Positions 1 to 48,373 of a stretch of 64,000 nucleotides of DNA are shown piece after piece. The DNA lies in the sequence record PZ026127.1. The stretch is one strand, 5' to 3'. Numbering within the stretch: the stretch's first letter is position 1; each line of letters starts with the position of its first letter. The stretch is from a phage. The translations under genes were made by a program, and so were the position numbers. The notes under the pieces were generated by a model that saw nothing but the letters and a program-made list of their open reading frames with translations, did not search any database and was not told where the DNA came from.

Positions 1-1463
1 CGAGTATCATTCGACAAGTGAATATAAGCCCAGAGACCATCGCAGGGACATTCGCTAACGCACCGATACATGAATATATTGCCGGAACAGCTCCGCGTCC
101 TAGCGACACCTACAGTTGCTCTCCTAACGGCATGATGTATTATAAAGACCGTGAAGGTGTGATTCCGACAGAAATCACAAAGGTATTCTTGCAGCGTAAA
201 GAACATAAAGGTTACATGCTTGCAGCTCAGCGTAATGGTGAGTTAATTAAAGAAGCATTGGAAAATCCTAATCTCTCGGTTGATAGTCCACTGGATATCG
301 ATTATCGTTTTGACTTCTCTGACGAAATCAAAGCCCAGATTAAAGCACTGTCAGCGCCTTCTTTAAGAGAAATGTTGAAGAAAGCCGAGCTCACTGAAGT
401 TGCAGGTAACACGGCTCAGATTAACCGTAAGTTGCTTATCAACTCCCTTTATGGTGCACTTGGTAACGTATGGTTCCGTTACTATGACCTCAGGAACGCA
501 ACTGCAATCACATTGTTTGGTCAAATGGCCCTCCAATGGATTGAACGTAAGGTTAACGAATATCTGAATAGCGTGTGTAAGACTGAAAATCAGAAGTTCG
601 TGCTCTATGGTGATACTGACTCCATTTATGTTAAGGCCGATGCAATCATCAATAAAGTAGGCGAAGATAAATTTCGTGACACTAACCACTGGGTCGACTT
701 CTTAGATAAATTTGCACGTGAACGTATGGAACCAGCTATTGATGCAGGCTTCCGTGAGATGTGCGAATACATGAACAACAAACAACACTTGATGTTCATG
801 GACCGAGAAGCTATCGCAGGTCCTCCACTTGGTTCTAAAGGTCTTGGTGGATTCTGGACAGGCAAGAAACGTTATGCACTGAACGTTTGGGACATGGAAG
901 GTACTCGTTATGCCGAACCGCACTTGAAAATCATGGGTCTCGAAACTCAGAAATCAAGTACACCTAAAGCAGTTCAGAAAGCTCTGAAGGAATGTATCCG
1001 TCGTATGCTTCAGGAAGGCGAGGCATCTTTGCAAGAATATTTCAAACAGTTTAATAAGGAATTTAACGAACTCGATTATGTAAGCATTGCAGCAGTATCC
1101 AGTGCTAACAACATCGAGAAATATAATGAAGGTGGATTCCCGGGTTCTAAATGTCCATACCACATCAAAGGTTGCTTAGCTTACATGCGTGCTTCTGCAG
1201 GTGATTTGACTATGCCTCGTATCGTTGATGGTGAAAAGGTATATGTACTGCCACTTAAAGAAGGCAACCCGTTTGGTGAAGCTTGTATGGCATGGCCGTC
1301 AGGTATTGAACTTCCGGTTCAGATTCGTGACCAAGTCCTCCGTTGGATGGACTACAACGTACTGTTCCAAAAGACCTTTATCAAACCTCTGACCGGTTTT
1401 ACTGAGTCTGCTAAAATCGACTACGAGAAAAAAGCAACATTATTTGATATGTTCGACTTTTAA
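1..1463 (+). CDS. 43: DNA polymerase gp43, C-terminal part (5' end lies outside window)
   Basis: ORF runs in frame from window edge; family-B polymerase motif YGDTDS and C-terminal LFDMFDF tail as in T4 gp43. Confidence 0.95.
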   Translation, partial: SIIRQVNISPETIAGTFANAPIHEYIAGTAPRPSDTYSCSPNGMMYYKDREGVIPTEITKVFLQRKEHKGYMLAAQRNGELIKEALENPNLSVDSPLDIDYRFDFSDEIKAQIKALSAPSLREMLKKAELTEVAGNTAQINRKLLINSLYGALGNVWFRYYDLRNATAITLFGQMALQWIERKVNEYLNSVCKTENQKFVLYGDTDSIYVKADAIINKVGEDKFRDTNHWVDFLDKFARERMEPAIDAGFREMCEYMNNKQHLMFMDREAIAGPPLGSKGLGGFWTGKKRYALNVWDMEGTRYAEPHLKIMGLETQKSSTPKAVQKALKECIRRMLQEGEASLQEYFKQFNKEFNELDYVSIAAVSSANNIEKYNEGGFPGSKCPYHIKGCLAYMRASAGDLTMPRIVDGEKVYVLPLKEGNPFGEACMAWPSGIELPVQIRDQVLRWMDYNVLFQKTFIKPLTGFTESAKIDYEKKATLFDMFDF

Positions 1464-1465
1464 GT

Positions 1466-1495
1466 GTTTACATACCACAAGGAACGTGGTAGTAT
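1466..1495 (+). promoter_or_regulatory. early sigma70-type promoter (GTTTAC -35, TAGTAT -10) upstream of imm
   Basis: GTTTAC at 1466-1471, 18 nt spacer, -10-like hexamer, then CCTATCAAC box and GAGGAA RBS. Confidence 0.5.
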
Positions 1496-1525
1496 CCTTC
1501 CTATCAACTACATGAGGAAATTACA

Positions 1526-1762
1526 ATGGAAGCTTTAATCGTTAGTGCTGGTGTTTTAGGATTCGGTTCTCTGGTTATTATGTTCATCGGTTACTTTTTA
1601 CCATGGATTCTGGCTCTTCTGCGAGGCACTCGTAGTAATGTCGGAATTTTCTTCCTTAATCTCCTGTTAGGCTGGACGATGATTGGTTGGGTAGTGGCTT
1701 TAATCTGGGCTATCGTCGCTGAACGTAAATCAAACGCACAAATCATTATTGTTAAGCAATGA
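1526..1762 (+). CDS. imm: Imm superinfection-immunity membrane protein
   Basis: 78 aa, two hydrophobic helices, position directly after gene 43 as in T4; RBS GAGGAA. Confidence 0.85.
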   Translation: MEALIVSAGVLGFGSLVIMFIGYFLPWILALLRGTRSNVGIFFLNLLLGWTMIGWVVALIWAIVAERKSNAQIIIVKQ

Positions 1763-1903
1763 AAATAATTATTTTATTTCTTATAATGACTGCCTTTACC
1801 ATTTATTGGGCAGTGGCAATTCCGCCAATGATTCCGACACTCATCATTGGATGGATTATTCTTATAGCACAAATTAAGTATAACTGTTTTAATTGAGGAT
1901 ATT

Positions 1904-2404
1904 ATGAAAAAGTTAATTATCGCAATGAGTATGCTCCTATCAGGTTGCGCGGTCCAATATGGTGATACAGTTTCGGCCGATGAAGTTGGTAAAGCTCGTA
2001 TCGCAGCTGAACAGAAACAATTCGATGGCGAAATGAAATTCCGTGCAGGTTCTGGACTTGTGTACACCCGAGCTAATAATCAATGCGGTAATAACTGTGC
2101 AAAATATGCTCAACAAGAAATCGAATTCCAACGTGAACAAGAGTCCAAGCGTGAAGCGGTACTAGCCAAACACCAGGCAGAAATGAAGCGTCAAGATGAT
2201 TTGTACAAAAAGCAGAAACTGTATGCGATGTGCGTAAACCATATCAATCTACAGATTTCCATCCACGAGGCTCGTTATTACGAAATGCTCGAAACCGAGA
2301 GCTTCGGTAAAGCTCGTGATTATAAGAAACAAATCGATAAGCTCAAGACCAAAGCACCGGCGGCAATAGAACAGTGTATTGAAATCGGTAAAGATAAGAT
2401 TTAA
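1904..2404 (+). CDS. predicted lipoprotein, function unknown
   Basis: N-terminal MKKLIIAMSMLLSGC lipobox followed by charged coiled-coil-like region; RBS GAGGA. Confidence 0.6.
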   Translation: MKKLIIAMSMLLSGCAVQYGDTVSADEVGKARIAAEQKQFDGEMKFRAGSGLVYTRANNQCGNNCAKYAQQEIEFQREQESKREAVLAKHQAEMKRQDDLYKKQKLYAMCVNHINLQISIHEARYYEMLETESFGKARDYKKQIDKLKTKAPAAIEQCIEIGKDKI

Positions 2405-2464
2405 GCAATACCAATTTATTAAAAATAGTGTATAATGTACCTACATTCACTTGAGGAACAGATA

Positions 2465-4138
2465 ATGAAAAAGGTTGTTATTTTAGGCGCGGGTCTTGGC
2501 TCACGGTTGTATCCAATTACCAACGAAATCCCGAAGGTACTGGTTAACTACAAACAACATACTGTATTAAAACATTTGTATGATTTGTATAGTAATCAAT
2601 CAGATGAAATTATTCTGGTTATTCACAGCAAATTTAACGACCTCGTTAAAGGCTATATTAAATCCATTAACATGATTAATAGTGATAAGCCTAAATTCAC
2701 TATTCGTAACGTTGATGTTGCCAATGGTTCGGCTCATGCTATCGATTGCATTGCCGAAGATATCATTGGGCACAATGTCTTGTTTAACTGGTGTGATATT
2801 ATTCCTGAAGGTCATAAAGTTGAGTGGGATAACGACTACTGTTATACCTATGGGACTGACTGTCGTTTTACATTTGAAGAACCGTACTTGCGTGAAATTG
2901 GTACCGGTGGTGGCGTAGTTGGCTTGTATCAGGTGGCTAATTGGACAGGTTTCGACCGTTCTAATTATGGTGAAGACCTTGCTGACAACCTGGATTCAAT
3001 GGTCCATTTGACTGAACGTAAGTTAGACTTTGTAGTTGATGTTGGTGACAAACTGAAACTGGCTAAGGCCCATGAAGATTCTGAAATTAACCGTGAATTT
3101 AATAAATTAGAGTTCACTGAGAATCTAGCTATTAAAGTACCTACAAACGAATTAGGTAAAGAAATCCAATCTAAAGAAATCAATTGGTACAATTCTATTG
3201 ATTCTGAATTCGTTCCTAGCATTGTAGACTTTGCTCCAGGTGAATTCATTAAAATGGAACGTATCTTTGGTCGAACCATGGCAGATGCCTACCGGTTTAT
3301 GTCTAAAGAAACTAAAGTCCTAATGGTTTATAAGGTTATTAGTGCATTACGTTCGTTCGGTGGAACTATCGATAATCCATCTGATGAGCAATGGTATTCT
3401 GATGTTAAGAAAGAAGTATTGGACAAGGTCCTTATTCGTAATGCTTCTATCGCCGGATTGATTGAAGGCTTTGCTCCACAGGGCATTACCCATGTTAACG
3501 ACTTTAAGGTAGGCGACCCTGAAAAACTTCTTCGCCATGCACTAGAAATTCTGTCTGAACATAAAGAACCGTACCAACTTATTCATGGCGACCCGCACTA
3601 CAGTAATATTATGTTGTCGGACGAAGGTGATATTAAAATCATCGACCCACGTGGTTATTTTGGTAATAGTTCTAAAGGCCCTGCGATTTATGATGAAGCT
3701 AAGGTGCTTTATTCTATCGATGGTTATGACAAATTTAACTCTGACCCTCTATGGGGTGGCTTAACTCGTAACGGAACTCGTGTATTCGTTGATATTGAAA
3801 AGGTTATGCCTTTAGATGATATTCCAATGTGTACATTTAAGCACAAGCTCTGGATTGCTGTTATCTGGATGGCATTGGCAGGTTACTTTAAAAATAACCC
3901 TCTGAAAGCTCTGGGTGCTTATTACAACGGTTTGTACCAACTGAGTGTGCTGCTGAAGCGACATCCTCGTAAGCGTAAGCTTATCACAGGTGAATTCGTT
4001 GATGAAGTTCGCGACCCTATCACGGCTCAAATTATCACTCGTTGTCCTGATAAGTGGGTTTTGCTTGACCAAGAAACTGGTGTAAAATATAAACCTACAG
4101 GTTCTACTGAACTCCACAAACAATGGAAGAAAATTTAA
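2465..4138 (+). CDS. bifunctional nucleotidyltransferase / kinase-like phosphotransferase (N-terminal sugar-1-P or phospho-alcohol nucleotidyltransferase domain, C-terminal APH/choline-kinase-like domain)
   Basis: N-terminus ILGAGLGSRLYPIT...PKVLV matches the G-x-G-[ST]-R-x-x-P-x-T nucleotidyltransferase signature; C-terminal HGDPHYSNIM...IKIIDPRG matches the catalytic loop of aminoglycoside/choline/anomeric-sugar kinases. Start set at ATG 2465 after GAGGAA; the track ATG at 2435 lies inside a TGTATAAT -10 box. Confidence 0.7.
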   Translation: MKKVVILGAGLGSRLYPITNEIPKVLVNYKQHTVLKHLYDLYSNQSDEIILVIHSKFNDLVKGYIKSINMINSDKPKFTIRNVDVANGSAHAIDCIAEDIIGHNVLFNWCDIIPEGHKVEWDNDYCYTYGTDCRFTFEEPYLREIGTGGGVVGLYQVANWTGFDRSNYGEDLADNLDSMVHLTERKLDFVVDVGDKLKLAKAHEDSEINREFNKLEFTENLAIKVPTNELGKEIQSKEINWYNSIDSEFVPSIVDFAPGEFIKMERIFGRTMADAYRFMSKETKVLMVYKVISALRSFGGTIDNPSDEQWYSDVKKEVLDKVLIRNASIAGLIEGFAPQGITHVNDFKVGDPEKLLRHALEILSEHKEPYQLIHGDPHYSNIMLSDEGDIKIIDPRGYFGNSSKGPAIYDEAKVLYSIDGYDKFNSDPLWGGLTRNGTRVFVDIEKVMPLDDIPMCTFKHKLWIAVIWMALAGYFKNNPLKALGAYYNGLYQLSVLLKRHPRKRKLITGEFVDEVRDPITAQIITRCPDKWVLLDQETGVKYKPTGSTELHKQWKKI

Positions 4139-4521
4139 TGTCACATCGAGTAGAAAATAAGCCTCATTTATGTTTTGACATCGATAACACAATCACGATT
4201 TGGAACCATGACCGTGATTATGAAAACTTTAAACCGGACACCGAAATGGTGTCCATGATTAATAAGCTTTATGATGAAGGATGCGAGATTACCTTGTTCA
4301 CTGCCCGTGGTATGACTTCATGCGGTCCAGGTCGAATCTTGGTTGAAGTAGTTCCTGCATTGGTTAAGAATCTTGAAAAGATTGGATTGAAATATCATAA
4401 TCTGCTTACACATAAGCCGAGTTATACTTTTATCATCGATGACCGAGCAATCCGTCCTGACCACTTTAAAGAAATGGTTCGTGAAGGAACTCTTGAAACC
4501 TATAAGGCATATCATCCGTGA
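4138..4521 (+). CDS. HAD-superfamily phosphatase-like protein
   Basis: Motif I FDIDNTIT (DxDxT), motif II TLFTAR, motif IV IIDDR; start ATG overlaps upstream stop (TAATG). Confidence 0.6.
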   Translation: MSHRVENKPHLCFDIDNTITIWNHDRDYENFKPDTEMVSMINKLYDEGCEITLFTARGMTSCGPGRILVEVVPALVKNLEKIGLKYHNLLTHKPSYTFIIDDRAIRPDHFKEMVREGTLETYKAYHP

Positions 4522-5054
4522 AACCAAAAATCATTGTTATCGACGGCCCGGATAATTCCGGGAAGTCTACTTTAATTGAATCGCTTTTATCTGATAAGAA
4601 ATATCGTCTTATCGATTTCCCTAAAAAGATTAATGGTAAGTGCATTTCGATAGGGACTGATAATGACAAGGCTTTAGTCGAGACGTTGTATAAGTTTTTA
4701 GACCCTAATTTTGTCTACATCTTAGACCGTGGATATCCTAGTAATATTGTTTACTCAGGATTCCTTCGTGGTGAAATGGACCCCTATGTAGAACTGGAAG
4801 ATTGGAAAGGGTTTAAATCTGAATTCAATATTATTGAGGTTATTTTAACCCGTAATCCACTGGATAAAGACTTTGAAGATGACCTTATTAAATTAACCAA
4901 AGATGAGTTCAACCTAACTATCCGGCAATATGAAACATGTTTTGAAAACGTGTTTAAAATCTTAAATCACGACGGCCATAATAACTTGCTTAACGTCGAT
5001 ATGGTAGAATTAAAACGTCTGAATGAATATATTGAAAATAAGGTGAATAAATGA
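4518..5054 (+). CDS. P-loop nucleotide kinase, thymidylate-kinase-like
   Basis: Walker A IVIDGPDNSGKST and TMK-like DRGYPSNIVYS motif; GTG start overlapping upstream stop. Confidence 0.6.
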   Translation: MKPKIIVIDGPDNSGKSTLIESLLSDKKYRLIDFPKKINGKCISIGTDNDKALVETLYKFLDPNFVYILDRGYPSNIVYSGFLRGEMDPYVELEDWKGFKSEFNIIEVILTRNPLDKDFEDDLIKLTKDEFNLTIRQYETCFENVFKILNHDGHNNLLNVDMVELKRLNEYIENKVNK

Positions 5055-5749
5055 AACACATTACCGCTGTTAGTTTTGAAAACGCGTTTAAGCAAATGAA
5101 CGAAGAAATCCTGGAAGCTCCACAGTTTGCAGTTGATTCTCGTATCGGCCGTTGTTATGAAATTGGTTCTGCTTCGGTAGAAGTACTGGATGCAAGCACC
5201 TATAAATTCACCGACCCTCGTATTAATCGTATCAACTATGATTATGCCGAATCTTTCTGGAAGTTTATGATTTCTGGTGGTACTGACGCCGCCGAAGCAT
5301 TTAAGGAATACCCTAATGTTGCTAAGTTCATTGATAAGCCGAAAAGTGACGTATTGCCTGCAAACTTCAACACTTTCTATGGACCTAGAATTGTGGCCCA
5401 ACTCCCAGCCTTACTTAAAGAGCTTAAAGAGAAGCCTAACTCAAGACGAGTTGTGTTCCAAATTCTCCAAGAACAAGACCAAGCCCTCCTTGATTCTGAC
5501 GAATCCTTAGAATATCCATGTACCGATTCGGTGACATATTATATTCGTGATGGACGTCTGTATGCACACACTCATATGCGTTCACAGAACTGTGCTATTG
5601 TTATGCAGCTGGATTTCTATCTGCAGGGTAAACTGATGGCCTTTATTGCTGAACAGTGTGGTGTTGGTCTGGGTACGTATTCCCATACTATGGTTAGTGC
5701 ACACGTATTTGAACGTGATTTTGACTACGTTCGAGGATTCCTGAAATGA
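5051..5749 (+). CDS. 42: dCMP hydroxymethylase (thymidylate-synthase fold)
   Basis: 232 aa; motif CTDSVTYYIRDGRLYAHTHMRSQN resembles T4 gp42; position between imm region and uvsX. Confidence 0.85.
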   Translation: MKHITAVSFENAFKQMNEEILEAPQFAVDSRIGRCYEIGSASVEVLDASTYKFTDPRINRINYDYAESFWKFMISGGTDAAEAFKEYPNVAKFIDKPKSDVLPANFNTFYGPRIVAQLPALLKELKEKPNSRRVVFQILQEQDQALLDSDESLEYPCTDSVTYYIRDGRLYAHTHMRSQNCAIVMQLDFYLQGKLMAFIAEQCGVGLGTYSHTMVSAHVFERDFDYVRGFLK

Positions 5750-37434: not shown

Positions 37435-37710
37435 ATGACTAAAATTGAAATCGTTTCCGAAATTGCCACTATTGTTTCCATTTTGATTAAAACGGATTGT
37501 GAAGACATCATGCAACGTCGTGATGAGTTTATTGCCTTTTTGAATGAGTTAGGTATTCGTAATGAACATGGAAAGGAACTTAATGGTTTGTCTTATAACA
37601 AATTATTTAAGTCTTTAACTGAAGATGAGCGTGAAACTCTTATTGAGCAATTTAATGAAGGGTATGAAGATATACACCGTTATTTAATGATGTATACCTC
37701 CAATTTCTAA
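37435..37710 (+). CDS. asiA: AsiA anti-sigma70 factor
   Basis: 91 aa; IVSILIK ... FIAFLNE ... FNEG ... YRYL pattern matches T4 AsiA. Confidence 0.9.
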   Translation: MTKIEIVSEIATIVSILIKTDCEDIMQRRDEFIAFLNELGIRNEHGKELNGLSYNKLFKSLTEDERETLIEQFNEGYEDIHRYLMMYTSNF

Positions 37711-38360
37711 CGTGTTCGACCTAATGTCCTCCCGGCTTGACCACACATAGACGAAAGTCTAGGAAATCCTAAATCCGGTTTGATATCATACCAGTACAAC
37801 GATATCGAGCCGGCGTAGACGTTATCCAAATTAAAAAACGGGCATGAAAACATATACGTGAATTGTGTTTTCTTCTTTGTAGGGAGAAACACTGATTCAG
37901 TACTTGATTCAAAATAGTTCCCGTTAACTCCCGCCATATATTCTACTGACGTTTTGTCAATTGGAAACCCTCCCGTGTTTTTTGCGTCTACCGTTTCCGG
38001 TAATTTACCCTCGTAAGCCACCATATCCACAAAATAATTCATGTTGGTTGGTCTAAAAGAATATATTGCTGTGAAGTCTGCGCCTGAAGAAGAATGCACT
38101 ATTCGGAGCTGCTCGATAGCCGCAATTTTAAATCTATTGTCCTGGTCTTGTCTAATCATTTCAGTATAAGAGGCATAAGTTGTCTCTTTGTAAAAGTTTA
38201 GAATATACTCGCCTTTATACCAAACCAATGCCATAAAGAACAATAATATTACGACTAGGACCCGGGAAAAAACAACTTTCCCGGAAGAAGTATCTTTAAA
38301 AATTCTATCAAGAAGTCCAAAAAGTAGGTCTGATAATGATATTCCTACTTTTGGTTCCAT
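37707..38360 (-). CDS. t: holin T
   Basis: 217 aa; SDLLFGLLDRIFKD N-terminus, one TM helix, large periplasmic domain, matches T4 holin; SD AAGGAG. Confidence 0.9.
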   Translation of the reverse strand: MEPKVGISLSDLLFGLLDRIFKDTSSGKVVFSRVLVVILLFFMALVWYKGEYILNFYKETTYASYTEMIRQDQDNRFKIAAIEQLRIVHSSSGADFTAIYSFRPTNMNYFVDMVAYEGKLPETVDAKNTGGFPIDKTSVEYMAGVNGNYFESSTESVFLPTKKKTQFTYMFSCPFFNLDNVYAGSISLYWYDIKPDLGFPRLSSMCGQAGRTLGRTR

Positions 38361-38378
38361 ACTTTTCTCCTTTAAAGA

Positions 38379-38386
38379 TATTTATA
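38379..38386 (-). promoter_or_regulatory. late promoter TATAAATA for t
   Basis: Exact TATAAATA on - strand about 19 nt upstream of holin ATG. Confidence 0.55.
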
Positions 38387-38391
38387 AATTC

Positions 38392-39189
38392 TTAACTAAG
38401 CCAAGGGCCGTAAATCGTACCGGTCGCGCCCCATGCAGGAGCAGAAACGGCAACAGCAGCTCCAGAACCGCCCGCTGCCCCAACTTTAAGAACTTTACCA
38501 CCATCATTCCATGCGTTCTGGCCTGCGGCGCCAGCATCACCGCCATGACCTGAGTGGGCGTTACCATAATTGTATCCACCGCCAGGGCTTTCATAAGAAG
38601 CACCACCACCGGAGTATCCACCACCGCCACCAGGACCAAATGGACGTCCACCACCACCACCGATATCTTGCCAGTTAGCACCTGAGTGAGGACGATACGC
38701 AATGCCACCACCGCCACCACCACCGCCACAGATAACCCCATAGTTCCAAATACGTAGTCTATGACCTATATGGTTGACTATACAATCACCGCCCCATTGA
38801 CCGTTACCGTCGCCACCTGAATGGGTCCACCCACCGTGGCCGCCTCGGCCCCACATATGCACGCCTCCATGAATAGTCAAATTGACATATTCATTAGGTG
38901 TGTCGGCATTCATAAAGAACAATGGAACATTACGGTCGTAAGATACTATATCGCCTGTGATATTAAACACAATAGGTGCGCTGCCTGCTTCAAAACAGCG
39001 GTCGCGGAACCACTGGCCATTAAAATTATGGTTTGCTGTTATGGTGTGAATTACTTCAACAGACCGACCGTTCATATTACTCATCCAAAATGGGACACCC
39101 ATTCTTAATCTTACAGCGGCTCCTGCCATCCAAGGGTCTCCTGTCTGCGCCCTTGCAGAAGTTCCTATCCACGGTCCTGCTACTGCCAT
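38392..39189 (-). CDS. 38: gp38 receptor-binding adhesin, T2-type with glycine-rich motifs
   Basis: Poly-Gly blocks separated by variable segments; start set at ATG 39189 after GGAGG. Confidence 0.8.
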
Positions 39190-39220
39190 ATAAACCTCCA
39201 AGGGGCCGAAGCCCCTCTTA

Positions 39221-42200
39221 TTATTTTAACAATGATTTAATTAATGCTTTAAGTTCTTCAATCTCTGATTTCAATTCTGCTATTTCTGCAGTGTGCTCAT
39301 TGATTGCAGCTGTATTTAAACCAATTACACCGTTATAGTTCAAACGAAGTAAAGCTTCACCATCAGGGTCGCCTTCAACCAATTCAGGTAAAATAGCTTG
39401 AACTTCTTGAGCAATTAAACCAGCGTTAGGTTCCCATTTCTGATTACCTTCTTCATCCAGGCCACGTTTCTGCATATAAGTGTAGCCGTTAATTTTAGAA
39501 AGCTTCTCAGAAGCATTTTCAAATTTAACAAGGTCTTTTTTAACACGAATATCAGAACGAACATAAACGTCACGGACAAATGTTGAATAGGCATCGCTTT
39601 GTTGGATTAAATGACCAAAAGAAATAATAGCTCTTCCTGTTTCAGTCCACAAAGCACCAGTGGTATCCCAAAGACCTTCATGGATATGGTAAGAACTAGA
39701 CCATGAAGCAATATGCATACCATTGGCAACCATATTGATTCGGCCGTCACCACCATGCGATAATCCTGTGTCGTTATCACCAATAGCAATACTAGGAGAG
39801 CCTAATCCATTAACAGTACCAACACCAATTGCAGGAGTCTGGACTAAAGACGGGGCGTAAAATAAACCACTAGAGTGGAATTCGAAAATACCTGCAGGAT
39901 CGTTGCCATTTTCCTGGTTACCAACACGGATAATAGCTTGGGCCCATGTATTAGTAATACGACGCATACCGAAATCAACACCCGATACATATCCTTCATT
40001 AGTAATACCAGATTTTCCTTTGATAATCGGATAATAACTATCATTACCAACATTACCAAAATCTACAAACACCGGAGCTTCTTGCTTCCATTGGTTTCCC
40101 CAATCGCCAGCCTGGTGCGCAGCCCATTGTGTACCCTTTATATAAAGACGGTCCTTATTAAAATAAAAAGTATCCGACCCTTGAGGAGCTAAACCAATTT
40201 CCCCACTATTATGAATATTAAAACCTGAATTAGTTTGGAAACTATAAAACGATAAGGCATTATCAGCGCCGCCATTACCTACATACCAGTTATTAACGCC
40301 GGCTTTTTGCCCTTTAACATAACCGGATTCGGTTGCAGCACTGTTAATAACAATAGCATCCGAGTTTGCATTAAGAGTTAAGCGGCCGGTCATCGTGTCG
40401 CCTTCTTTAGAAACACGGCTATAGACAGCACCAAGAAGATTGGTTACATCACCGGCAGAAGTAAACGTTTTCCAGATATCAGACCAGATGTTACCATTTT
40501 TGCTAATAGTAGCTTCACCACCGCCAACCTGCACGTTATCCGGGAAATTAACTGTACCATCAGCATTAAATCTTGATGTATGACCTTGGGTCCCGTCTTC
40601 TTTGTAATGATGCAAAACAAAAGTCCCGGAATTAATTTCAGTACCTAAAGACCAAACAGCTTTTCCTTGTAAGAATTTCTGCTTAACAATAGGATAATAT
40701 TTACTTACCGCGTCATCATCAATTTCTTGGAAAACAGGAGCTGCTTGTGCATATTGAATATCGTAACCGCCTGCACCTGCACCATGTCCACCGAATTTAA
40801 TATAGCCGTTCGCAGTGATCGTATTGTATCTTGACTGTAAATCTGGAATACTTACTTTACCGGTATCTAAAGCCATACTAAATGGGCGAAGTGGTCCGAT
40901 ATCACCGGACATGCCTTCACCGAATGCAGTAGGAATAATATGAAGACTTCCTTCCGAACGTCTAAAAATGACCCCGTAATCGTTGTTCCAGATGCGGAGC
41001 CCGTTAACAGCATTTGTAGTAATTTCGCCTGCGGTATGGACCGCTCTATCAACCAAAATATCTTTTTTAACAACAAGATTTTCGTTAATAGTTTGTTGTC
41101 CATTTAATACGGCCTCAACGGTATTATCTTTATTGCGCTGGATATAATGCATCCAACTTACGGCATCAGATATTTCCATCACGTTTTTACGGGTGCCGCC
41201 TACTGTATTAAATGTGTTACCCCATACGGCAATAGACATATTATCAACAGAGCTCTGACCAGTGGTATAACCTTTAAAAAGCAAAACTGAGTTGTTATTT
41301 CGGCCATCAATATTAACCGAACCACCAACAACATCAATATTACCAGGAGTAACTAACAAACCACCAGCGGTGTTAACGTTTGTAGTACCCTTACCACGGA
41401 AATAGTGGTGATAATTACCGCCTTGATAATACCCTAAAAGAGTTTGTCCGTCGCCGTAAGCATTATTATCATGATAAGTGACAACTGTAGCCAAAGCATA
41501 GTTTTCCGACGGAGGTGTTGTCATAAGAACCCCGTCCGGAGAATAACCCATAACCATTTTTCTAAGGCTTTGTGTTTCCGTAGGTCCGTAAATGAAAGTT
41601 CTTGTTCCGTTGTTTACTGTATGGAAATATCCATCCTGATGCCATTTTAACCCGGTGTCATTATCACCAAGAGCAATTGAAGCAGTTCCTAATTCAGAAT
41701 ATCCTTTAGAGTTACCTGGGGTGCCTACAGAAATAGAATGACCGGCTTTCAATCCACCAGACCAAGTAAATGACCAAAGATAGGCGTCTAATCCATCTCC
41801 AGCATACCAGGTTATCCCGTCATTATCTTTAACTTCATGGAAAATGCTCGAACTAACTGCATTTCGCATAACACGGAGATGGTTAATAGCTGTTTCACTT
41901 TCTGCCAATGGGCTATTATCGGCCATTGAATAGATATCATAATCGCCTATCTTCTTCCCGTTTGTAATAACTTTATCGGTCAGAATTTGTGGAGATGAAA
42001 TAGATTTCCATGCTGATACTTCAGGTGAAGTAAATAGTCCACTGCCTGAAAATGCATAAGTGCTTTCGCTTCCTGCAGCATAATCTTGAACGCGAATATT
42101 AACTACTTGATTGGTCAAACCCGCATTGTTAGGAGAAAAGATAATACCACGCTCACGGTCATCGCCATCAAAGAAACGAAGATGAGAAGTTGAGGCGCTC

Positions 42201-42541
42201 TTAGAAATAAGTTCTCCACCTTCGGTCATTATCCGACCTGCAGCAATAATATCACGAGTTACGCGAGCAATCCCTGTTAAATTAAAATCACCTGTTTGGG
42301 TAAAGGTACCATTTAAGGTATAATCGCCGGTCTGGTTGTAATTTCCTTTATGAATAACGTTACCGTCAATATTACCACCTTTAGCAAAGCCAAGGTCGAT
42401 GATAGCGCCAGAGTCGTCTTTAGTAAAAAGTAATCGGTCCTTTAAGTTAATAGCCAGTTCGCCTTCAGCCAACTGGGCCGGTGTTGGACGTACACCGGCT
42501 ACTTTACTTCTTTTAAATTGGATTTGCTTTAAAGTAGCCAT
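39221..42541 (-). CDS. 37: long tail fibre distal subunit gp37 with C-terminal intramolecular-chaperone domain
   Basis: 1106 aa; C-terminal SDIRVKKDL ... GLIAQEVQ ... coiled-coil tail typical of autoproteolytic chaperone domains. Confidence 0.9.
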
Positions 42542-42549
42542 AATGCCTC

Positions 42550-43197
42550 TTAATAATAACCAAAATCTTGAATAGAATCTTTAATAACAATCTGGTCAAA
42601 ACGAGGAACGTGTCCTGCGTCAGAGGCCGGATTCAGCGAAATAAAGTTAGGAGCAGCAAGTACTCCGGTCATTGTTTGCATGTTAGTATTATTTATTTGG
42701 ACTTGTTTTGCGTTATCTACTAACGATAATCCTACTTGAGCTTTAGTAGGGGTGTTGCCTGGGCTGAATACACGACCTGATTCGTCATAAACTTGACGGA
42801 ATAATGAATCACCCATTACTGTGAGGCGTTTAGCACCCACTACTGTACTTGGGTCAAATATAACGAACGGTGTACCATCTTCCGTTTCATATCCAAAAGC
42901 ACCTTTAATACGGAAAGAAGCTGTGAACGGGGCTCCGCCAGTTCTTGCTCCTAATTTAATACCGTATCCATTGGTATCATTAAAGGTCAGCCCTTTTTCA
43001 AAATACACGTTATTCTTATAATTACCACCATCTGCTTTTGAAACAAAATCGTTATCAGTGGCTTGTGGTTTATTATATTCGGTGTAAACTTTATATGTTT
43101 TGTAAAGAAGGTCATTTGATACAGGCGTTAAGGGAAAATTACCTTGGTGCCATAATACCGAACCTCCTGCTGTAGAACCTAATTTTAAATCTGCCAT
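42550..43197 (-). CDS. 36: long tail fibre distal connector gp36
   Basis: 215 aa; position and size as T4 gp36. Confidence 0.85.
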   Translation of the reverse strand: MADLKLGSTAGGSVLWHQGNFPLTPVSNDLLYKTYKVYTEYNKPQATDNDFVSKADGGNYKNNVYFEKGLTFNDTNGYGIKLGARTGGAPFTASFRIKGAFGYETEDGTPFVIFDPSTVVGAKRLTVMGDSLFRQVYDESGRVFSPGNTPTKAQVGLSLVDNAKQVQINNTNMQTMTGVLAAPNFISLNPASDAGHVPRFDQIVIKDSIQDFGYY

Positions 43198-43271: not shown

Positions 43272-44393
43272 TTAATATTTTTCTCTAAATTCAGCGACCC
43301 AAACCTGACCAGGTTTAGTGCCTGTTTTATCATATAGCTGGGCTATGGTAGTACCCATATTTTTAGTTTCCGTACCAAAGTTCATACGAATACCGTTAAC
43401 ACCAAATTCAGCAGGTTTTGGCTGAGGTTCTGATTCAGATATCTCACCGAACATAACATTTCGAACTCCGCCTTGGCCAGCCGAAGCTGTTTTTCTGGCA
43501 TAAAGAGTAAAGTCTGTAGTACCTTCAGGAACCATTACTACCCGTTCAAATGTCATCCATGCACCAGCAGGAACGTTGGAAGGAACGTCCATATTAACTG
43601 TCCCAGTTAAAGCACCTGAGGCATTAAAAAATCTAACAGACATCTGAGAAGTCCCTACGTCTTTTAAAGCTTGGTCGCGCATTAATTGAAACTTAAGGTA
43701 AAAGAATTCACCTGGTTTCATATTATAATCTGTTAATGGGGTGGTAGGAGATTCGGTAGGAAATCGCTTAATTTCATCTCCATCATTGCTTAGATAAGTG
43801 CTTTCGTCTTCAACAATTCTGACAGGATATCCTGTACCACCGACATCACTGATATCATCAAATACCACTTCCAATGGAGTAGAAACATCTTCGACCAATA
43901 CCCCATCATTATAAAGCACATGTTCCATTACTATAGCATTCCTTCCTGAAACATAAAATGCCGAATAAGACGGCTCGAAGCGGTCTATTAGCCATTTAGA
44001 TGGAAATGCGGTACTTCCTGCTGCACGGAACCAATCGATAAGTTTTTGTGAAGCATTTAATCTACCAGAAGATACTAAACAAACTATTCTATTAGCCGGT
44101 ATAGAATTTATATACGTTATAAAAGCTTCAGAAATAACATCAAAATCTTTTGTAAAACTATAAGTTTTGTTAGCCACTATTTTGGGTTCAGCACTAACAT
44201 CAATTTCTATAAGGTTTAATCCATTTTGAAAATTCTGGGAACCGAAGTTCCCATCTTGAAATTTAACATATGCTTTTGTGGTAGACTTAGTACAACTACC
44301 CGCTATACTAAGTTTATACCTTACAGCATTGTTTTCAGATAATGTAGGAACCTGGACATATCCTTGTCCAAATTCTGCCATAAATCTTTCCAT
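43272..44393 (-). CDS. 35: long tail fibre hinge protein gp35
   Basis: 373 aa; position between 34 and 36. Confidence 0.85.
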   Translation of the reverse strand: MERFMAEFGQGYVQVPTLSENNAVRYKLSIAGSCTKSTTKAYVKFQDGNFGSQNFQNGLNLIEIDVSAEPKIVANKTYSFTKDFDVISEAFITYINSIPANRIVCLVSSGRLNASQKLIDWFRAAGSTAFPSKWLIDRFEPSYSAFYVSGRNAIVMEHVLYNDGVLVEDVSTPLEVVFDDISDVGGTGYPVRIVEDESTYLSNDGDEIKRFPTESPTTPLTDYNMKPGEFFYLKFQLMRDQALKDVGTSQMSVRFFNASGALTGTVNMDVPSNVPAGAWMTFERVVMVPEGTTDFTLYARKTASAGQGGVRNVMFGEISESEPQPKPAEFGVNGIRMNFGTETKNMGTTIAQLYDKTGTKPGQVWVAEFREKY

Positions 44394-44401
44394 AATACCT
44401 C

Positions 44402-47400
44402 TTATTCAATCCACTCAAACTTAACGGATTTAGTGACCGGGTCAGGAATAATACGCACGTTACCAATACGTAACCAATCAAGGATTGTAATGTTTTTCAT
44501 GGTAGCATTATCTGCAGGTAAAGCACCCACGTCATTGGCTGTAGGCGGGTTAGCTGCTGTATAAACCATAGCAAAATCCGTCCACTCATTTTTATTTTTC
44601 TGCCAAGTACGTGTATAACGAATAGTACCACCATTCAGTCCTGTAGGGTAACATATCCAATCTTGATAACATGAATCCAAGGTATTGCCAAACTGGGTTA
44701 ACGTACCAGGGTATTTAATTTCATTTTTATCTCTATCAAAGAAATCAAACCATTGGCCTCTAAGCTTTTCATCATTAGAGCCTAAAACTGGGGCTCCTTC
44801 AGTACCATCCTCATTCAGATAATGTATTTCAGGCGAATCAAAAGTTCCATCTAACGTCAACCAACCTGTAGCTTTCCAATCTCCATCCGTTACTGAAGGC
44901 GGCTTGGTCTGAATTGTATCAATAGTTATATGACGACGTAATATCATTCTATGATAACCCGGGAACTTACTATAAGTAGCCTCGTCACTGATATCAACAG
45001 ACCAGAAGCCAACTGTTTCTGCAGTAGGAGCTTGCTCGATAAGACTTGGCTTAGTACCAAATGCACGAACTGGAGCATTAACACGGAGAACACCTGTCAT
45101 TGTGTCGCCGGCCTGGTTAACAAAGTTCCGGTCTACAATTTCTACAGCGTTTTTCTCGGTCAGAACTTTATAAGCACCGCCACCATTAGCTACGATATTT
45201 CCTGCATCTAATGTTTTAAGAACCAAATTCTGAGAATTATCGCCTAAAGACAATGTAGCACCAGAAGATTCACCTGTGGTGGTTGCGATGGTTCTTCCAT
45301 TCAGGACAAAGTTATTTTTGGCCTGGACATCATTCCCAGCACTAAGGTTATTCAGAGCAGCCACATTACCTGTAGCGGTGTTCATAGTCAATACGTTAGT
45401 CGTATCACCAATGGTTAATGTAGTTCCTGTAGATGGAGCTGTTATTTTCCATTTATTGGTTCCGTTAACAACGTTCACTGTGCCAAAGGTAGAATTCGTA
45501 GCTGTAACATCCGTAAATGTAGCAGTACTAGAAGACACCAGAGGAGCTGCCAGGTTCAATTGTTTGGTCAGGGTTAAAGAACCATTAACCGTTTGGTCGA
45601 CGTCTCTACGAATGAACTGGAGTGAATCTAGGCCATCCAATTTCTCGGAGTTCACAGCCGTAGCATTTATAGGTAAAAAGTTCTGTAAAGTTTTATTCAT
45701 CTCGTAAGATGAAACCGCATAACCCGTTTTAGGGTAGTTAGCTGCGTTCAGAACAGTATCATCGTTCTCGTAAAGGCCTGTGCCTGAGTTAAATTTAACA
45801 CCGGAACCGGTAACTTTATTTCCTGAATGGGTTAAAGCACCTTCGGTTAGTTTAACAAATCCACGACGAAGTGCAGTAGCTTCCCAAGTGGTTTCGGTCT
45901 GTACTACATATTTTAAACCAGAAGGGCTTACAGCCAGAACTTTAGAAGTTCCTGCAGTTGTTTCGGTATTCGTTGCAACACGAATAATACCTTCAGAACT
46001 TTCAGTAGATTTTTTAGAATGCAATTTCAAAGGAGTGATGATAGTTTTATCATCGGTACCAACGTTGACTTCGGTCTGGGTTGCCAGGCGAGCAGTACCA
46101 CGTTGAGTCTCATTTGCTTCTCTAATATCTAGTGTATAATGGTTCCATAAGGTTCCTGATTCAACCAAACCACTGGCTGCTGAGACAGAAGTTCTAGCAG
46201 TATCATTAAATCTTGTTTTAACTTTCAACGGAGTTGAAATAACATTATCTAACGTACCAGCATCAAATTCTACCTGTGTTGCAATTCTAGCAATACCAGT
46301 CAATCCTTCCGTAGCTTTCCTATCATTTAACGTTTTAGGCGTTACTGCACGAGTATAATCTGTTCCAGTATCAGTTTCCTGTTGCGTAGCAATTTCAATT
46401 AACCCTGTACGAGTATCAAGAGCCACACGAGCATGTAATGTTTCAGGAGAAACAGCACTGTTGGCAAATCCACTTGCAGTTTGACCTGCGTTAACTTCAG
46501 ATTGGTTAGAAAGATATACCGTACCCTGTTGAACTTGGGTAGCTTTATACTGGTCAAGAGCTTTAGGAGAAATAACCAAATTGCCTACGTTCTTATTATA
46601 AACGTTAGTACCTACGGTGTCCCTAGCAGTCGCAGGAGCGGTTCCTACAGTAGAGGTATATGTTACAATACCTGAAAGACTTTCCGAACCCTGGCGCGCT
46701 TGTAGCTTCTTAGGAGTGATGATTGTAGTATCATCTGTACCCGTGTTAGTTTCAACTTGCGTAGCAATTTCAGCAACACCACGACGAGTTTCGGTTGCAG
46801 TACGTTCGTTTAATTTCTTAGGAGAAATAATCAAATCGTCCTGGAATGCGAAGGTTGTGTCCTGGTTCACCTGAGCAGTAGTAGCAATACGAGCAATACC
46901 ACGACGAGATTCAGTCGCCACACGATTAGCTAAAGTCTGCGGAGTAATTGCCAGTTCTTTTTCAGGATTATTTTCATGGTCAACGTTTGCTTGAGTCTGG
47001 GACGCAAGGGCAATAACACCTAAACGAGCACGAGTTAAATCATCTTTAGAATCCACACGTTCTATAGTAGGAACGTTCTGGGCAACAACCCAATATTTGC
47101 CACCTGTAGTGGTGTCTTCGATATAACTCAGTTCAATAACCGGAGTATAACTTATATTGCCATTAAAGGTCAGTACGTCATTCAATACCCATTCGGTTTC
47201 TGGTGGATATTCTGAACGTTTAGGGAATTGAAGCAACTGGACGGATGAAGCAATCTTATCTCCTACGGCAGCCTTAATATTTACTGTCTGAGCTTTACGG
47301 AGATAGTTCAGAGCAATCTTAACGACATCACCCTGGGCCACACCGGTAGGTAATGTGATATTAATTGTCTGGGGTGTCGTGTTATTAGGACCAAAAACAA

Positions 47401-48373
47401 TAACACTTTCGTTAGCCAAGAGTTCAACATCGTCACGAATTACACGTAAACGAGTTTGAAGGTCGCCGTCCCAAACATACCATAATTTTTCGTTAGAGTT
47501 ATAAACGAAGAATCCATCGCCTGAGGTACGGAATTCCATGCTATGCTGATCAGGTTTACCTAATGCAGACGAAGCATCAAACGTTTCAACGATTAAGTGG
47601 AACTTACTTCCTAAACCATCGATATCAACGGTTTTAATCATATCACCTTGGTTCGCATACTTAGGAAGAGTAAACTTAATTACTGCACCTGAAGTATAAC
47701 GACGGAGAACATTATCACCGGCTTGAGCTTGGAACTGAGCGGTGTTCGGTTCTACACGAATACCACGTTCTTCGTTACCAGCTTCCCAGAAATGCCAAAG
47801 ACGGTTAGCAAAGATAAGCATGTTATAAGAAAAAGGCTTCGTAATTAAGGTCTCAGTAAACTGATTACCAAAACGAACAATTTTCTGGTTACCGCCACCA
47901 GGAGCAGAACTAGACTGAACCTTTATTTCGTTATAACCAACACGTCCACCGATATCTTTAATTACAACGGTATCGCCGTCTGTAGGGTTAGGAGGCAAGG
48001 TAAATGTAGTAAAGCTAGCAGCGGAATCCACCGCAATATATTCACCAGAAGCCAGTTGGCGTGTAGGAGATGCTACGGTAATCCATTTAGGGTCCGTACG
48101 GGTAGCGGTCCAATAACCAGGTACAAAGGTTCCTGCCGGAGCATCGATATCACGTTGAGCAACCCAGATACGTTGGTCATGGATTACGGCGAACCCTTTC
48201 TTATATCCACGCGTCTCGTCGTACGCCTGGATGGTGTTCTCATCTATAAAGAATTCAACGTTGACGCCGTCGTCTAATACATTGTAATCGGCTTTGGCAA
48301 CATTGATAACTTTCTCGCCTGCAGCATCGAGTCCGGATGTAGCACGGAAGGCAGGTTTTAAAATATCGGCCAT
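44402..48373 (-). CDS. 34: long tail fibre proximal subunit gp34
   Basis: 1323 aa; long collinear match to T4 gp34 including repeated RRG(I/V)A(R/E)IAT segments and C-terminal FEW(I/V)E. Confidence 0.9.
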   Translation of the reverse strand: MADILKPAFRATSGLDAAGEKVINVAKADYNVLDDGVNVEFFIDENTIQAYDETRGYKKGFAVIHDQRIWVAQRDIDAPAGTFVPGYWTATRTDPKWITVASPTRQLASGEYIAVDSAASFTTFTLPPNPTDGDTVVIKDIGGRVGYNEIKVQSSSAPGGGNQKIVRFGNQFTETLITKPFSYNMLIFANRLWHFWEAGNEERGIRVEPNTAQFQAQAGDNVLRRYTSGAVIKFTLPKYANQGDMIKTVDIDGLGSKFHLIVETFDASSALGKPDQHSMEFRTSGDGFFVYNSNEKLWYVWDGDLQTRLRVIRDDVELLANESVIVFGPNNTTPQTINITLPTGVAQGDVVKIALNYLRKAQTVNIKAAVGDKIASSVQLLQFPKRSEYPPETEWVLNDVLTFNGNISYTPVIELSYIEDTTTGGKYWVVAQNVPTIERVDSKDDLTRARLGVIALASQTQANVDHENNPEKELAITPQTLANRVATESRRGIARIATTAQVNQDTTFAFQDDLIISPKKLNERTATETRRGVAEIATQVETNTGTDDTTIITPKKLQARQGSESLSGIVTYTSTVGTAPATARDTVGTNVYNKNVGNLVISPKALDQYKATQVQQGTVYLSNQSEVNAGQTASGFANSAVSPETLHARVALDTRTGLIEIATQQETDTGTDYTRAVTPKTLNDRKATEGLTGIARIATQVEFDAGTLDNVISTPLKVKTRFNDTARTSVSAASGLVESGTLWNHYTLDIREANETQRGTARLATQTEVNVGTDDKTIITPLKLHSKKSTESSEGIIRVATNTETTAGTSKVLAVSPSGLKYVVQTETTWEATALRRGFVKLTEGALTHSGNKVTGSGVKFNSGTGLYENDDTVLNAANYPKTGYAVSSYEMNKTLQNFLPINATAVNSEKLDGLDSLQFIRRDVDQTVNGSLTLTKQLNLAAPLVSSSTATFTDVTATNSTFGTVNVVNGTNKWKITAPSTGTTLTIGDTTNVLTMNTATGNVAALNNLSAGNDVQAKNNFVLNGRTIATTTGESSGATLSLGDNSQNLVLKTLDAGNIVANGGGAYKVLTEKNAVEIVDRNFVNQAGDTMTGVLRVNAPVRAFGTKPSLIEQAPTAETVGFWSVDISDEATYSKFPGYHRMILRRHITIDTIQTKPPSVTDGDWKATGWLTLDGTFDSPEIHYLNEDGTEGAPVLGSNDEKLRGQWFDFFDRDKNEIKYPGTLTQFGNTLDSCYQDWICYPTGLNGGTIRYTRTWQKNKNEWTDFAMVYTAANPPTANDVGALPADNATMKNITILDWLRIGNVRIIPDPVTKSVKFEWIE

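Follow-up and report, generated by a model that had tools for sequence, protein, structure and literature searches.

The gene 37–gene 38 locus of the window (the whole stretch of 64,000 nucleotides from phage sequence record PZ026127.1 that was analysed) very probably encodes a standard long-tail-fibre tip of the T2/S16 type in a Dhakavirus genome (T-even, Straboviridae), including the maturation and docking mechanism proposed below. Published work on T2, S16, PP01 and close relatives in Dhakavirus already covers the architecture, the fold, the cleavage and what the hypervariable loops do, and nothing that we met contradicts this architecture in the window. Novelty is confined to the allele, a natural mosaic of an E33-type attachment domain and a WG01-type body. 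The features of the locus are as follows.

39221..42541, minus strand: gene 37, encoding the distal subunit of the long tail fibre (1106 aa with the C-terminal chaperone; coordinates extend through the stop codon).
39557..39754, minus strand: mature distal tip of gp37 (approximately aa 930–995), ending in ...FVRDVYVR; predicted gp38 docking surface.
39224..39556, minus strand: intramolecular chaperone/Peptidase S74 domain of gp37 (S996–K1106; 111 aa, 12.3 kDa), with predicted autocleavage at R995/S996.
39224..39319, minus strand: heptad-repeat C-terminal helix of gp37 (aa 1075–1106), with seven of nine a/d positions hydrophobic.
39195..39216, minus strand: gp37/gp38 spacer, with a hairpin GGGGC-UUCG-GCCCC (39201–39216) adjoining the Shine–Dalgarno sequence GGAGG (39195–39199).
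38392..39189, minus strand: gene 38, encoding the receptor-recognising adhesin of 265 aa and 27.0 kDa (coordinates extend through the stop codon).
39070..39189, minus strand: N-terminal attachment domain of gp38 (aa 1–40) with W7, W20 and W35; E33-type, unlike the remainder of the gene.
38461..38850, minus strand: glycine-rich motif and hypervariable-segment (HVS) region of gp38 (aa 114–243), a predicted polyglycine-II sandwich with receptor-contacting loops; R166 and D218 lie inside.

As far as the sequence can tell, the gene structure, the family membership, the conservation of the key residues and the near-identity to annotated phage genes are established. On the minus strand gp37 (39221–42541) is followed by gp38 (38392–39189) and the holin gene t (37707–38360), within the order 34-35-36-37-38-t-asiA of the T-even phages. 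Gene 38 also lies between gene 37 and t in T2 and in the Dhakavirus phages vB_EcoM_FB (FB), KIT01, WG01 and QL01, to which the locus DNA is 95–96% identical. The region 38392–39560 delimited in the earlier note is right to within a few bases: position 39560 falls in the codon of V994 and the codon of S996 is 39554–39556. The start of gp38 was set at the ATG at 39189 rather than at TTG 39201, the start of the longest ORF, because the ATG is located 5 nt past the GGAGG Shine–Dalgarno sequence and the annotations of FB, KIT01, WG01 and QL01 all begin the gene there. The stem of the spacer hairpin is kept in six relatives. When the entire window was scanned for tRNAs and, at the gathering threshold, for Rfam families, there was no match, and the hairpin thus falls outside any curated RNA family. 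A scan of the region for sigma-70 promoters returned 15 sites compared with 13.5 ± 3.7 in shuffled sequence; this lack of an excess is as expected for late genes.

Glycine accounts for 24.5% of the residues of gp38 and for 34.6% from residue 110 onwards, with runs at G155–162, G177–181, G187–191, G194–196 and G203–205. The poly-glycine blocks separated by variable segments (G8, G5 and G5 being the longest) are therefore as described in the earlier note. In the 21 other large ORFs of the window that were checked, the glycine content is 3–12% and no run exceeds three residues. The local GC content rises to 0.53–0.55 across the glycine stretch from about 0.39 in the surroundings as a result of the GGT/GGC glycine codons.

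The protein was also proposed to be an adhesin that caps the fibre, and both its sequence and its predicted fold bear this out. Pfam GP38 (PF05268) matches aa 45–264 with 212 bits (cutoff 25; model positions 1–218 of 218) and Gp38_N (PF21721) matches aa 1–39 with 68.1 bits (cutoff 25), while the comparison with phrog_2056 ('tail fiber protein; host specificity') gives E = 4.7e-103. An NCBIfam scan of gp38 and the gp37 C-terminal fragment assigned no family, the library being without models for these phage proteins. A sequence search of the PDB retrieves PP01 gp38 (9v85, E = 1.6e-60) and, over the full length, S16 gp38 (6f45_D, E = 4.9e-44). The AlphaFold model of gp38 (pLDDT 90.4, pTM 0.82) leads Foldseek to the same two entries (9V85, E = 9e-23, TM 0.86 normalised to the target; 6F45_D, E = 3e-21, TM 0.78/0.83), which are the only significant ones, the third-best match having E = 4. 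The model predicts a three-domain fold with a helical attachment domain, a β-helix and a polyglycine-II sandwich. Three short helices (8–16, 21–27 and 36–39) form in the attachment segment, and W7, W20 and W35 are nearly invariant in the homologue alignment. The role of such tryptophans and attachment helices in docking has been described (PMC6851490). Among 61 gp38 homologues 36 columns are invariant, and the invariant glycine columns alternate with variable segments. Presence at the fibre tip of virions and binding of the host receptor have been demonstrated for the homologues from S16, PP01 and LHE83 (PMC6851490, PMC12892980, PMC10987938).

Two further ORFs, 38382–38741(−) and 38511–38678(+), overlap gp38 and were rejected as out-of-frame readings of the GGT/GGC runs. 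Together with the extreme composition and a Bp7 database homologue that appears to be frameshifted, they could be taken to mean that the glycine-rich ORF is itself a low-complexity artefact or a pseudogene. Its frame, however, remains intact through all 265 residues behind a Shine–Dalgarno sequence and an ATG, and the invariant columns, the confident structure model and the Pfam score all speak for a genuine protein. This alternative retains next to no probability and is effectively refuted.

gp37 matches phrog_1699 ('long tail fiber protein distal subunit') along its full length. Homologues are annotated in FB, KIT01, WG01 and QL01, and compared with its relatives the window gp37 is a mosaic. 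The tip aligns with the solved tip of S16 gp37 (6F45_A), its end DVYVR being placed opposite DLNVS of S16 and NVYIR of T2; a tip of this kind has been described as the docking surface of gp38 (PMC7917993, PMC6851490).

The last 110 or so residues of gp37 had been suggested to be a self-cleaving chaperone, and the motifs SDIRVKKDL and GLIAQEVQ and the heptad tail that were named in support are all found at the C-terminus. Consistent with a domain of this type, Peptidase_S74 (PF13884) matches aa 996–1055 with 48.5 bits (cutoff 22; model positions 1–57 of 58), gp37 ending at residue 1106. Searching the PDB with tip and chaperone together identifies S16 gp37 (6f45_A, E = 9.7e-47), and the chaperone alone matches the same chain from end to end (E = 6.7e-34) and the MyRF ICA domain weakly. 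Ser996 and Lys1001, five residues further on, are the putative catalytic pair. The two columns are kept in S16, T2, LHE83 and all matches, SDIRVK of the window aligning with S^SDRRIK of S16, SDIRLK of T2, SDIRCK of LHE83 and (A)DLRAK of MyRF. In the 147-residue fragment of the gp37 tail that was used for modelling, S37, D38 and K42 are nearly invariant among homologues.

The helical part is recognizable in sequence and in the model. In the best register of the last 32 residues the hydrophobic a/d positions are occupied by Ile, Leu, Val, Met or Phe, and AlphaFold predicts a single long helix (fragment residues 110–146, pLDDT 78–94). A word-indexed homologue search with the fragment found 11 short proteins, all 11 with PF13884; the alignment is consequently shallow and the chaperone model mediocre. 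Its mean pLDDT is 65, with values below 50 for the first 45 residues and of 75–94 inside the chaperone. A fold search of the PDB with this monomer model gives MyRF ICA (7dc3; E = 1.7e-5, probability 1.0, TM 0.47–0.50) followed by the endosialidase chaperone (3gw6; E = 0.09, probability 0.6), both with an r.m.s.d. of 13–22 Å, which is high because a domain-swapped trimer was modelled as a monomer. The families retrieved are thus those to be expected although the superposition is poor, and the fold comparison counts as supportive evidence only.

The chaperones of the K1F endosialidase (3GW6) and MyRF (7DC3) share PF13884, a Ser-x4-Lys motif at the N-terminal boundary and a helical C-terminal part with that of the window. 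Sequence identity to the latter is just 10–25%, and the domain upstream of the chaperone differs: the window has a T-even fibre tip as passenger, the endosialidase a sialidase tailspike and MyRF a transcription factor. In the K1F endosialidase, Ser and Lys are reportedly the catalytic dyad of MEROPS family S74.

A close counterpart of the tip is the gp37–gp38 complex of S16 (PDB entry 6F45; Dunne et al. 2018). The gp38 proteins align over their full length with 46% identity and have the three tryptophans and the G8/G5 motifs in common. In gp37 both tip and chaperone align, the latter with about 60% identity, and the Ser at the cleavage site, the Lys at +5 and the coiled-coil tail are all shared. 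The differences are found in the hypervariable loops of gp38, which are longer in the window (265 aa for the whole protein versus 249 aa), in a 12-residue insertion in the window gp37 tip and in the host, which is Salmonella for S16. The self-cleavage site given for S16 gp37 in PMC7917993, DLNVS^SDRRIKK, aligns to DVYVR^SDIRVKK in the window.

Autoproteolytic release of the gp37 chaperone is documented for S16 and T2 in PMC7917993, PMC3157838 and PMC7289586, and PMC3157838 (citing Drexler 1986) has gp37 of T2 and T6 processed and then capped by gp38. Taking over cleavage, 3:1 stoichiometry and docking mode by analogy with homologues, we propose the following assembly. gp37 would be produced as a precursor of 119.5 kDa, in which the S74-type chaperone (S996–K1106) would nucleate trimerization of the β-helical fibre through its helical, coiled-coil tail. 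The Ser996/Lys1001 pair would then excise the chaperone between R995 and S996, splitting the precursor into products of 107.2 and 12.3 kDa and uncovering a flat trimeric tip that ends in ...DVYVR. Onto this tip a single gp38 may dock by way of the three helices at its N-terminus, whose tryptophans W7, W20 and W35 would enter three equivalent pockets. The glycine-rich motifs of gp38 would form the polyglycine-II sandwich, from which the hypervariable loops would point distally and bind the host receptor, most likely OmpA as judged from loop similarity to characterized adhesins.

T2, the prototype, has the same Pfam architecture, with S74 at the C-terminus of gp37 and GP38 plus Gp38_N in gp38, and its gp37 carries the SDIRxK motif after ...VYIR. 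Its gp38, however, is only 43% identical to that of the window and has different loops; its gp37 is longer (1341 aa versus 1106 aa), with a shorter C-terminal helix in the chaperone. T4 has genes 37, 38 and t in the same positions as the window, but the homology of gp37 is confined to the N-terminal two-thirds (34% identity over aa 1–661, the only part that aligns) and its gp38 is unrelated (BLASTP E = 6.9). T4 gp37 ends in receptor-binding domains, PF07484 (Collar) and PF03335 (fibre repeat), and has no PF13884, and the reverse is true of the window gp37. This direct comparison rules out a T4-type arrangement, in which gp38 is an assembly chaperone and gp37 forms the receptor-binding tip; the contrast with T4 drawn in the earlier note holds.

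A related alternative is that the C-terminal domain of gp37 is an uncleaved remnant that stays on the fibre and that gp38 acts only as a transient, T4-style assembly factor. We consider this very unlikely. In several database records the label of gp38 homologues is 'distal long tail fiber assembly catalyst', but this is a name transferred from T4, to whose gp38 the window protein has no similarity. gp38 instead matches crystallized, fibre-bound adhesins over its full length, and adsorption is blocked by an antibody raised to its LHE83 counterpart (PMC10987938). In gp37 the S74 domain as a whole, with its Ser/Lys pair, is intact and conserved. Cleavage has been documented for S16 and T2, where it is needed to expose the docking face (PMC7917993, PMC3157838).

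Receptor identity is the weakest step of the explanation. That the variable segments determine host range, as had been suggested, agrees with the published model and with experiments in relatives (PMC3157838, PMC12032242, bioRxiv 10.64898/2026.04.02.716166) and is probable by analogy for the window gp38. Its sequence points to OmpA as the likely receptor, since the loops match those of the OmpA binders FL08/AV119 and LHE83 GP213. gp38 is 79–80% identical to the FL08 and AV119 proteins, and residues 111–265 are 84% identical to LHE83 GP213. HVS1–4 are near-identical in these proteins, including IAYRxHSGANWxDI and YSGGxASYxxPGGGYxYGNAHSGx. FL08 and AV119 carry OmpA-dependent 'type 1' adhesins with R165 and D217 as key residues, and belong to a Tequatrovirus comparison group, not to Dhakavirus (PMC12032242). 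Both residues are kept in the window gp38, as R166 and D218. The C-terminal strand is AVIGSAPTWQNVGVIYGPRV in FL08/AV119 compared with a different 21-residue strand in the window. LHE83 GP213 is a receptor-binding protein that can be blocked by antibody and whose receptor is OmpA (PMC10987938); it has a Bp7/T2-like attachment domain and is paired with a different gp37 tip.

We also considered the same architecture combined with a receptor other than OmpA, namely OmpC, Tsx, OmpF, FadL or LPS, or with OmpA plus a second receptor. A single HVS substitution can switch porin specificity, as Q206L does in RB68 (OmpF to OmpW; bioRxiv 10.64898/2026.04.02.716166), and the window allele has five HVS3/4 substitutions relative to the WG01 group. 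Adsorption of LHE83 on BL21 ΔompA is still about 50% (PMC10987938), and the gp38 of PP01, the closest solved relative by sequence, binds OmpC (PMC12892980). PP01, however, shares the conserved β-helix region and differs in the loops, whereas the loops of the window gp38, R166 and D218 included, are near-identical to those of the experimentally OmpA-dependent FL08, AV119 and LHE83 (PMC12032242). For WG01 and QL01, which are the closest relatives, no receptor data were found. A receptor other than, or additional to, OmpA is somewhat unlikely, yet a possibility to be taken seriously.

In FB, KIT01, WG01 and QL01 the gene order is the same, gp38 is of equal length (265 aa) and 94–95% identical, and the gp37 chaperone is 96–100% identical to that of the window; the annotations of their genes read tail fiber adhesin for gp38 and long tail fiber distal subunit for gp37. 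FB gp37 is identical to the window gp37 over aa 601–750 and 901–1106. Compared with the nearest relatives, gp38 has N207, H215, A221, Q224 and A239 as substitutions in HVS3/4. The first four are E33-type and A239 occurs in none of the relatives compared. The allele is a natural three-way mosaic: the gp37 tip is FB-type, the gp38 attachment domain is E33-type, as the patchwork of the DNA shows, and the β-helix with its loops is WG01-type. Neither the exact gp37 nor the exact gp38 sequence is present in a collection of 15 billion proteins, which amounts to novelty at the level of the allele only. It is improbable that the mosaic departs from all characterized relatives in its receptor or in the OmpA variants that it can use, with the conserved spacer hairpin and the poly-glycine DNA then acting as recombination joints; if true, this would be module shuffling in nature on a small scale and would involve no new mechanism.

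The analysis yields a prediction of OmpA as receptor, a predicted gp37 maturation site at R995^S996 and the product masses to be expected from it. The window adds a further natural case of gp38 module shuffling and opens no new question. Host range in this phage is determined primarily by the locus, which is thus the place at which to predict or engineer the range of E. coli strains, and its weight is practical rather than conceptual.

The tail-fibre genes lie on the minus strand in a T-even late cluster, with asiA, motA and topoisomerase gene 52 to the left of it on the plus strand:

44402-48373, minus strand, gp34
43272-44393, minus strand, gp35
42550-43197, minus strand, gp36
39221-42541, minus strand, gp37 (1106 aa)
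38392-39189, minus strand, gp38 (265 aa, ATG at 39189)
37707-38360, minus strand, holin gene t

The interval 38392-39560, where the earlier note placed a T2-type receptor-recognition module, comprises gp38 exactly together with the last 112 codons of gp37. An ORF listing starts gp38 at TTG 39201; this was rejected in favour of ATG 39189, which sits 5 nt past GGAGG and is used in all annotated homologues. The Val-rich and His-rich ORFs that overlap gp38 (38382-38741, minus strand, and 38511-38678, plus strand) are not genes and result from runs of GGT/GGC glycine codons being read out of frame or antisense.

The observation that glycine blocks in gp38 are separated by short variable segments is confirmed. 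Glycine makes up 24.5% of the protein and 34.6% from residue 110 on, with runs of G8, G5, G5, G3 and G3. The 21 further large ORFs of the window used for comparison contain 3-12% glycine and no run longer than three. Because the glycine codons are mostly GGT and GGC, the GC content of this stretch rises to 0.53-0.55 from about 0.39 around it. In the alignment of 61 homologues, glycine positions never vary and the stretches separating them do, which is the architecture of glycine-rich motifs and hypervariable segments (HVSs) of Trojet et al. (PMC3157838). The assignment as a T2-type adhesin likewise stands. Pfam detects GP38 (212 bits) and the attachment domain Gp38_N (68 bits), and the PHROGs label is 'tail fiber protein; host specificity'. 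The sequence matches the PP01 receptor-binding domain (PDB entry 9V85; E = 1.6e-60) and full-length S16 gp38 (6F45_D; E = 4.9e-44). An AlphaFold model built from the 61-homologue alignment (pLDDT 90.4, pTM 0.82) retrieves only these two structures from the whole PDB (E = 1e-21 to 1e-23, TM 0.72-0.86), the next match having E = 4. S16 gp38 docks onto the gp37 trimer by inserting three tryptophans (PMC6851490), and their counterparts here are Trp7, Trp20 and Trp35.

Three homologous database proteins are unusual. The Bp7 gp38 record (P0059) resembles the MN04 protein (P0042) except for an aberrant C-terminus (...GGEDGIITYLDLAVVLLVERYSEV...), which looks like a frameshift in the deposited record. 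A 303-aa protein labelled E. coli (P0086) combines PF13884, Gp38_N and GP38, fusing the gp37-chaperone end to gp38; this may reflect an error in gene calling, or else a prophage-like contig may contain a genuine fusion or read-through. Gp38 of Erwinia phage COW86c (P0104) lacks all three docking tryptophans and has Arg, Ala and Arg in the columns of Trp7, Trp20 and Trp35, suggesting that gp38 attaches to gp37 in a different manner in this lineage.

The proposal that the last ~110 residues of gp37 act as an autoproteolytic intramolecular chaperone is supported. Peptidase_S74 ('chaperone of endosialidase') is detected at residues 996-1055 (48.5 bits, cutoff 22), and the match begins at model position 1 exactly on Ser996, where the SDIRVKKDL motif starts (codon 39554-39556, 111 residues from the C-terminal end). 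Ser996, Asp997 and Lys1001 are nearly invariant in homologues, and the Ser-x4-Lys spacing of Ser996 and Lys1001 is that of the S74 catalytic dyad in endosialidases. GLIAQEVQ is present, and seven of the nine a/d heptad positions in the terminal 32 residues are hydrophobic. Over the C-terminal 195 residues gp37 matches the S16 gp37 construct in 6F45 (E = 9.7e-47); with the last 117 alone, S16 gp37 comes first (E = 6.7e-34), ahead of the MyRF ICA domain and a phage tail fibre. AlphaFold models the C-terminal 147 residues as a monomer with only moderate confidence (pLDDT 65 overall but 75-94 in the chaperone). The first two distinct PDB matches of this model, MyRF ICA (E = 1.7e-5) and the endosialidase intramolecular chaperone 3GW6 (E = 0.09), are supportive, not decisive. 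The junction reads DVYVR^SDIRVKK, compared with NVYIR SDIRLKS in T2 and DVYIR SDIRCKS in LHE83. The S16 intramolecular chaperone is described as the C-terminal 113 residues, autocleaved between the two serines of DLNVS^SDRRIKK so that the docking face for gp38 becomes exposed (PMC7917993, citing Dunne 2018; also PMC7289586). That T2 and T6 gp37 is processed proteolytically before gp38 caps it has long been known (PMC3157838, citing Drexler et al. 1986). By analogy with these homologues, the chaperone would assist gp37 trimerization, gp37 would cleave itself at Arg995^Ser996, monomeric gp38 would then cap it in the virion, and hypervariable loops of the gp38 polyglycine-II sandwich would contact the receptor.

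As the earlier note held, this arrangement is unlike that of T4. T4 gp38 has no similarity to the gp38 of the window (E = 6.9), and T4 gp37 aligns over residues 1-661 only (34% identity) and ends in Collar and fibre-repeat domains, without an S74 domain. The Pfam architecture of T2 gp37 and gp38, in contrast, is exactly that found here.

Two elements flank gp38:

39201-39216, GC hairpin GGGGC-UUCG-GCCCC in the spacer that separates the gp37 stop from the gp38 Shine-Dalgarno sequence, directly adjoining the gp38 ribosome-binding site
38379-38386, minus strand, T4-type late-promoter motif TATAAATA, 6 nt past the gp38 stop and upstream of holin gene t

The hairpin stem is kept in six relatives, with UUCG or UUAG as the loop. 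On the coding strand it lacks a downstream T run; on the opposite (plus) strand it has a terminator-like score, with the tail CTTATTATTT. Possible roles are stabilization of the late mRNA, adjustment of gp38 translation or termination of early antisense transcription. The late-promoter motif is kept in all relatives, even where the flanks differ. The window holds five copies, not above chance, and the argument for a late promoter is therefore its position, not the count.

The system is already known, and close relatives are annotated and partly studied by experiment. The 1169 bp region is 96.2% identical to vB_EcoM_FB and 94.8-95.8% to KIT01, WG01 and QL01, all Dhakavirus, whose annotations label the two genes 'tail fiber adhesin' and 'long tail fiber distal subunit'; a 24 kb stretch is ∼95% identical to E33, LHE83 and Bp7. 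Gp38 protein identity is 94-95% to FB, KIT01, WG01 and QL01, 89% to E33, 79-80% to FL08 and AV119, 78% to LHE83, 58% to T6, 46% to S16 and 43% to T2. A collection of 15 billion proteins contains neither the gp37 nor the gp38 sequence in exactly this form, and the allele is therefore new although the gene is known.

Two gp38 loops (26 and 24 residues) are nearly identical to their counterparts in FL08 and AV119, 'type 1' adhesins whose OmpA requirement was shown by deletion and complementation (PMC12032242); their modelled contact residues Arg165 and Asp217 are kept as Arg166 and Asp218. The loops also match LHE83 GP213 (WEY10218.1; 84% identity over residues 111-265), whose antiserum blocks adsorption and whose receptor was mapped to OmpA; partial adsorption of LHE83 persists without OmpA (PMC10987938). 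A reservation is that single HVS changes can switch porins, as with Q206L in RB68 (bioRxiv 10.64898/2026.04.02.716166). Judged from these loops, OmpA is probably the receptor.

At the DNA level the gp38 allele is a patchwork:

Mismatches per 60 nt against E33 and the WG01 group
39061-39180, attachment-domain segment: 0-1 against E33, 7-23 against the WG01 group; E33-like
38701-39060, gp38 segment: 12-15 against E33, 0-5 against the WG01 group; WG01-group-like
38340-38460, gp38 3' end and spacer before t: 6-22 against E33, 0-2 against the WG01 group; WG01-group-like

Over the compared range 38340-39600 the joints in gp38 appear to fall close to the conserved spacer and close to the poly-Gly runs. 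Gp37 is also mosaic with respect to all relatives, being identical to FB at residues 601-750 and 901-1106 and only 62-84% identical at residues 401-600; identity to QL01 gp37 is 24-76% for most of the shaft (residues 51-950), yet reaches 94-100% in the tip and chaperone. LHE83 (1033-5141 of its locus) has a T2-like short gp37 tip (...YVRDNIDVNDVYIR) and a Bp7/T2-like gp38 N-terminal subtype (IPGW...), a pairing that fits the published lock-and-key scheme (PMC3157838). Both differ from those of the window, whereas the receptor-binding half of gp38 is 84% identical. The attachment and receptor modules have therefore been exchanged independently within Dhakavirus.
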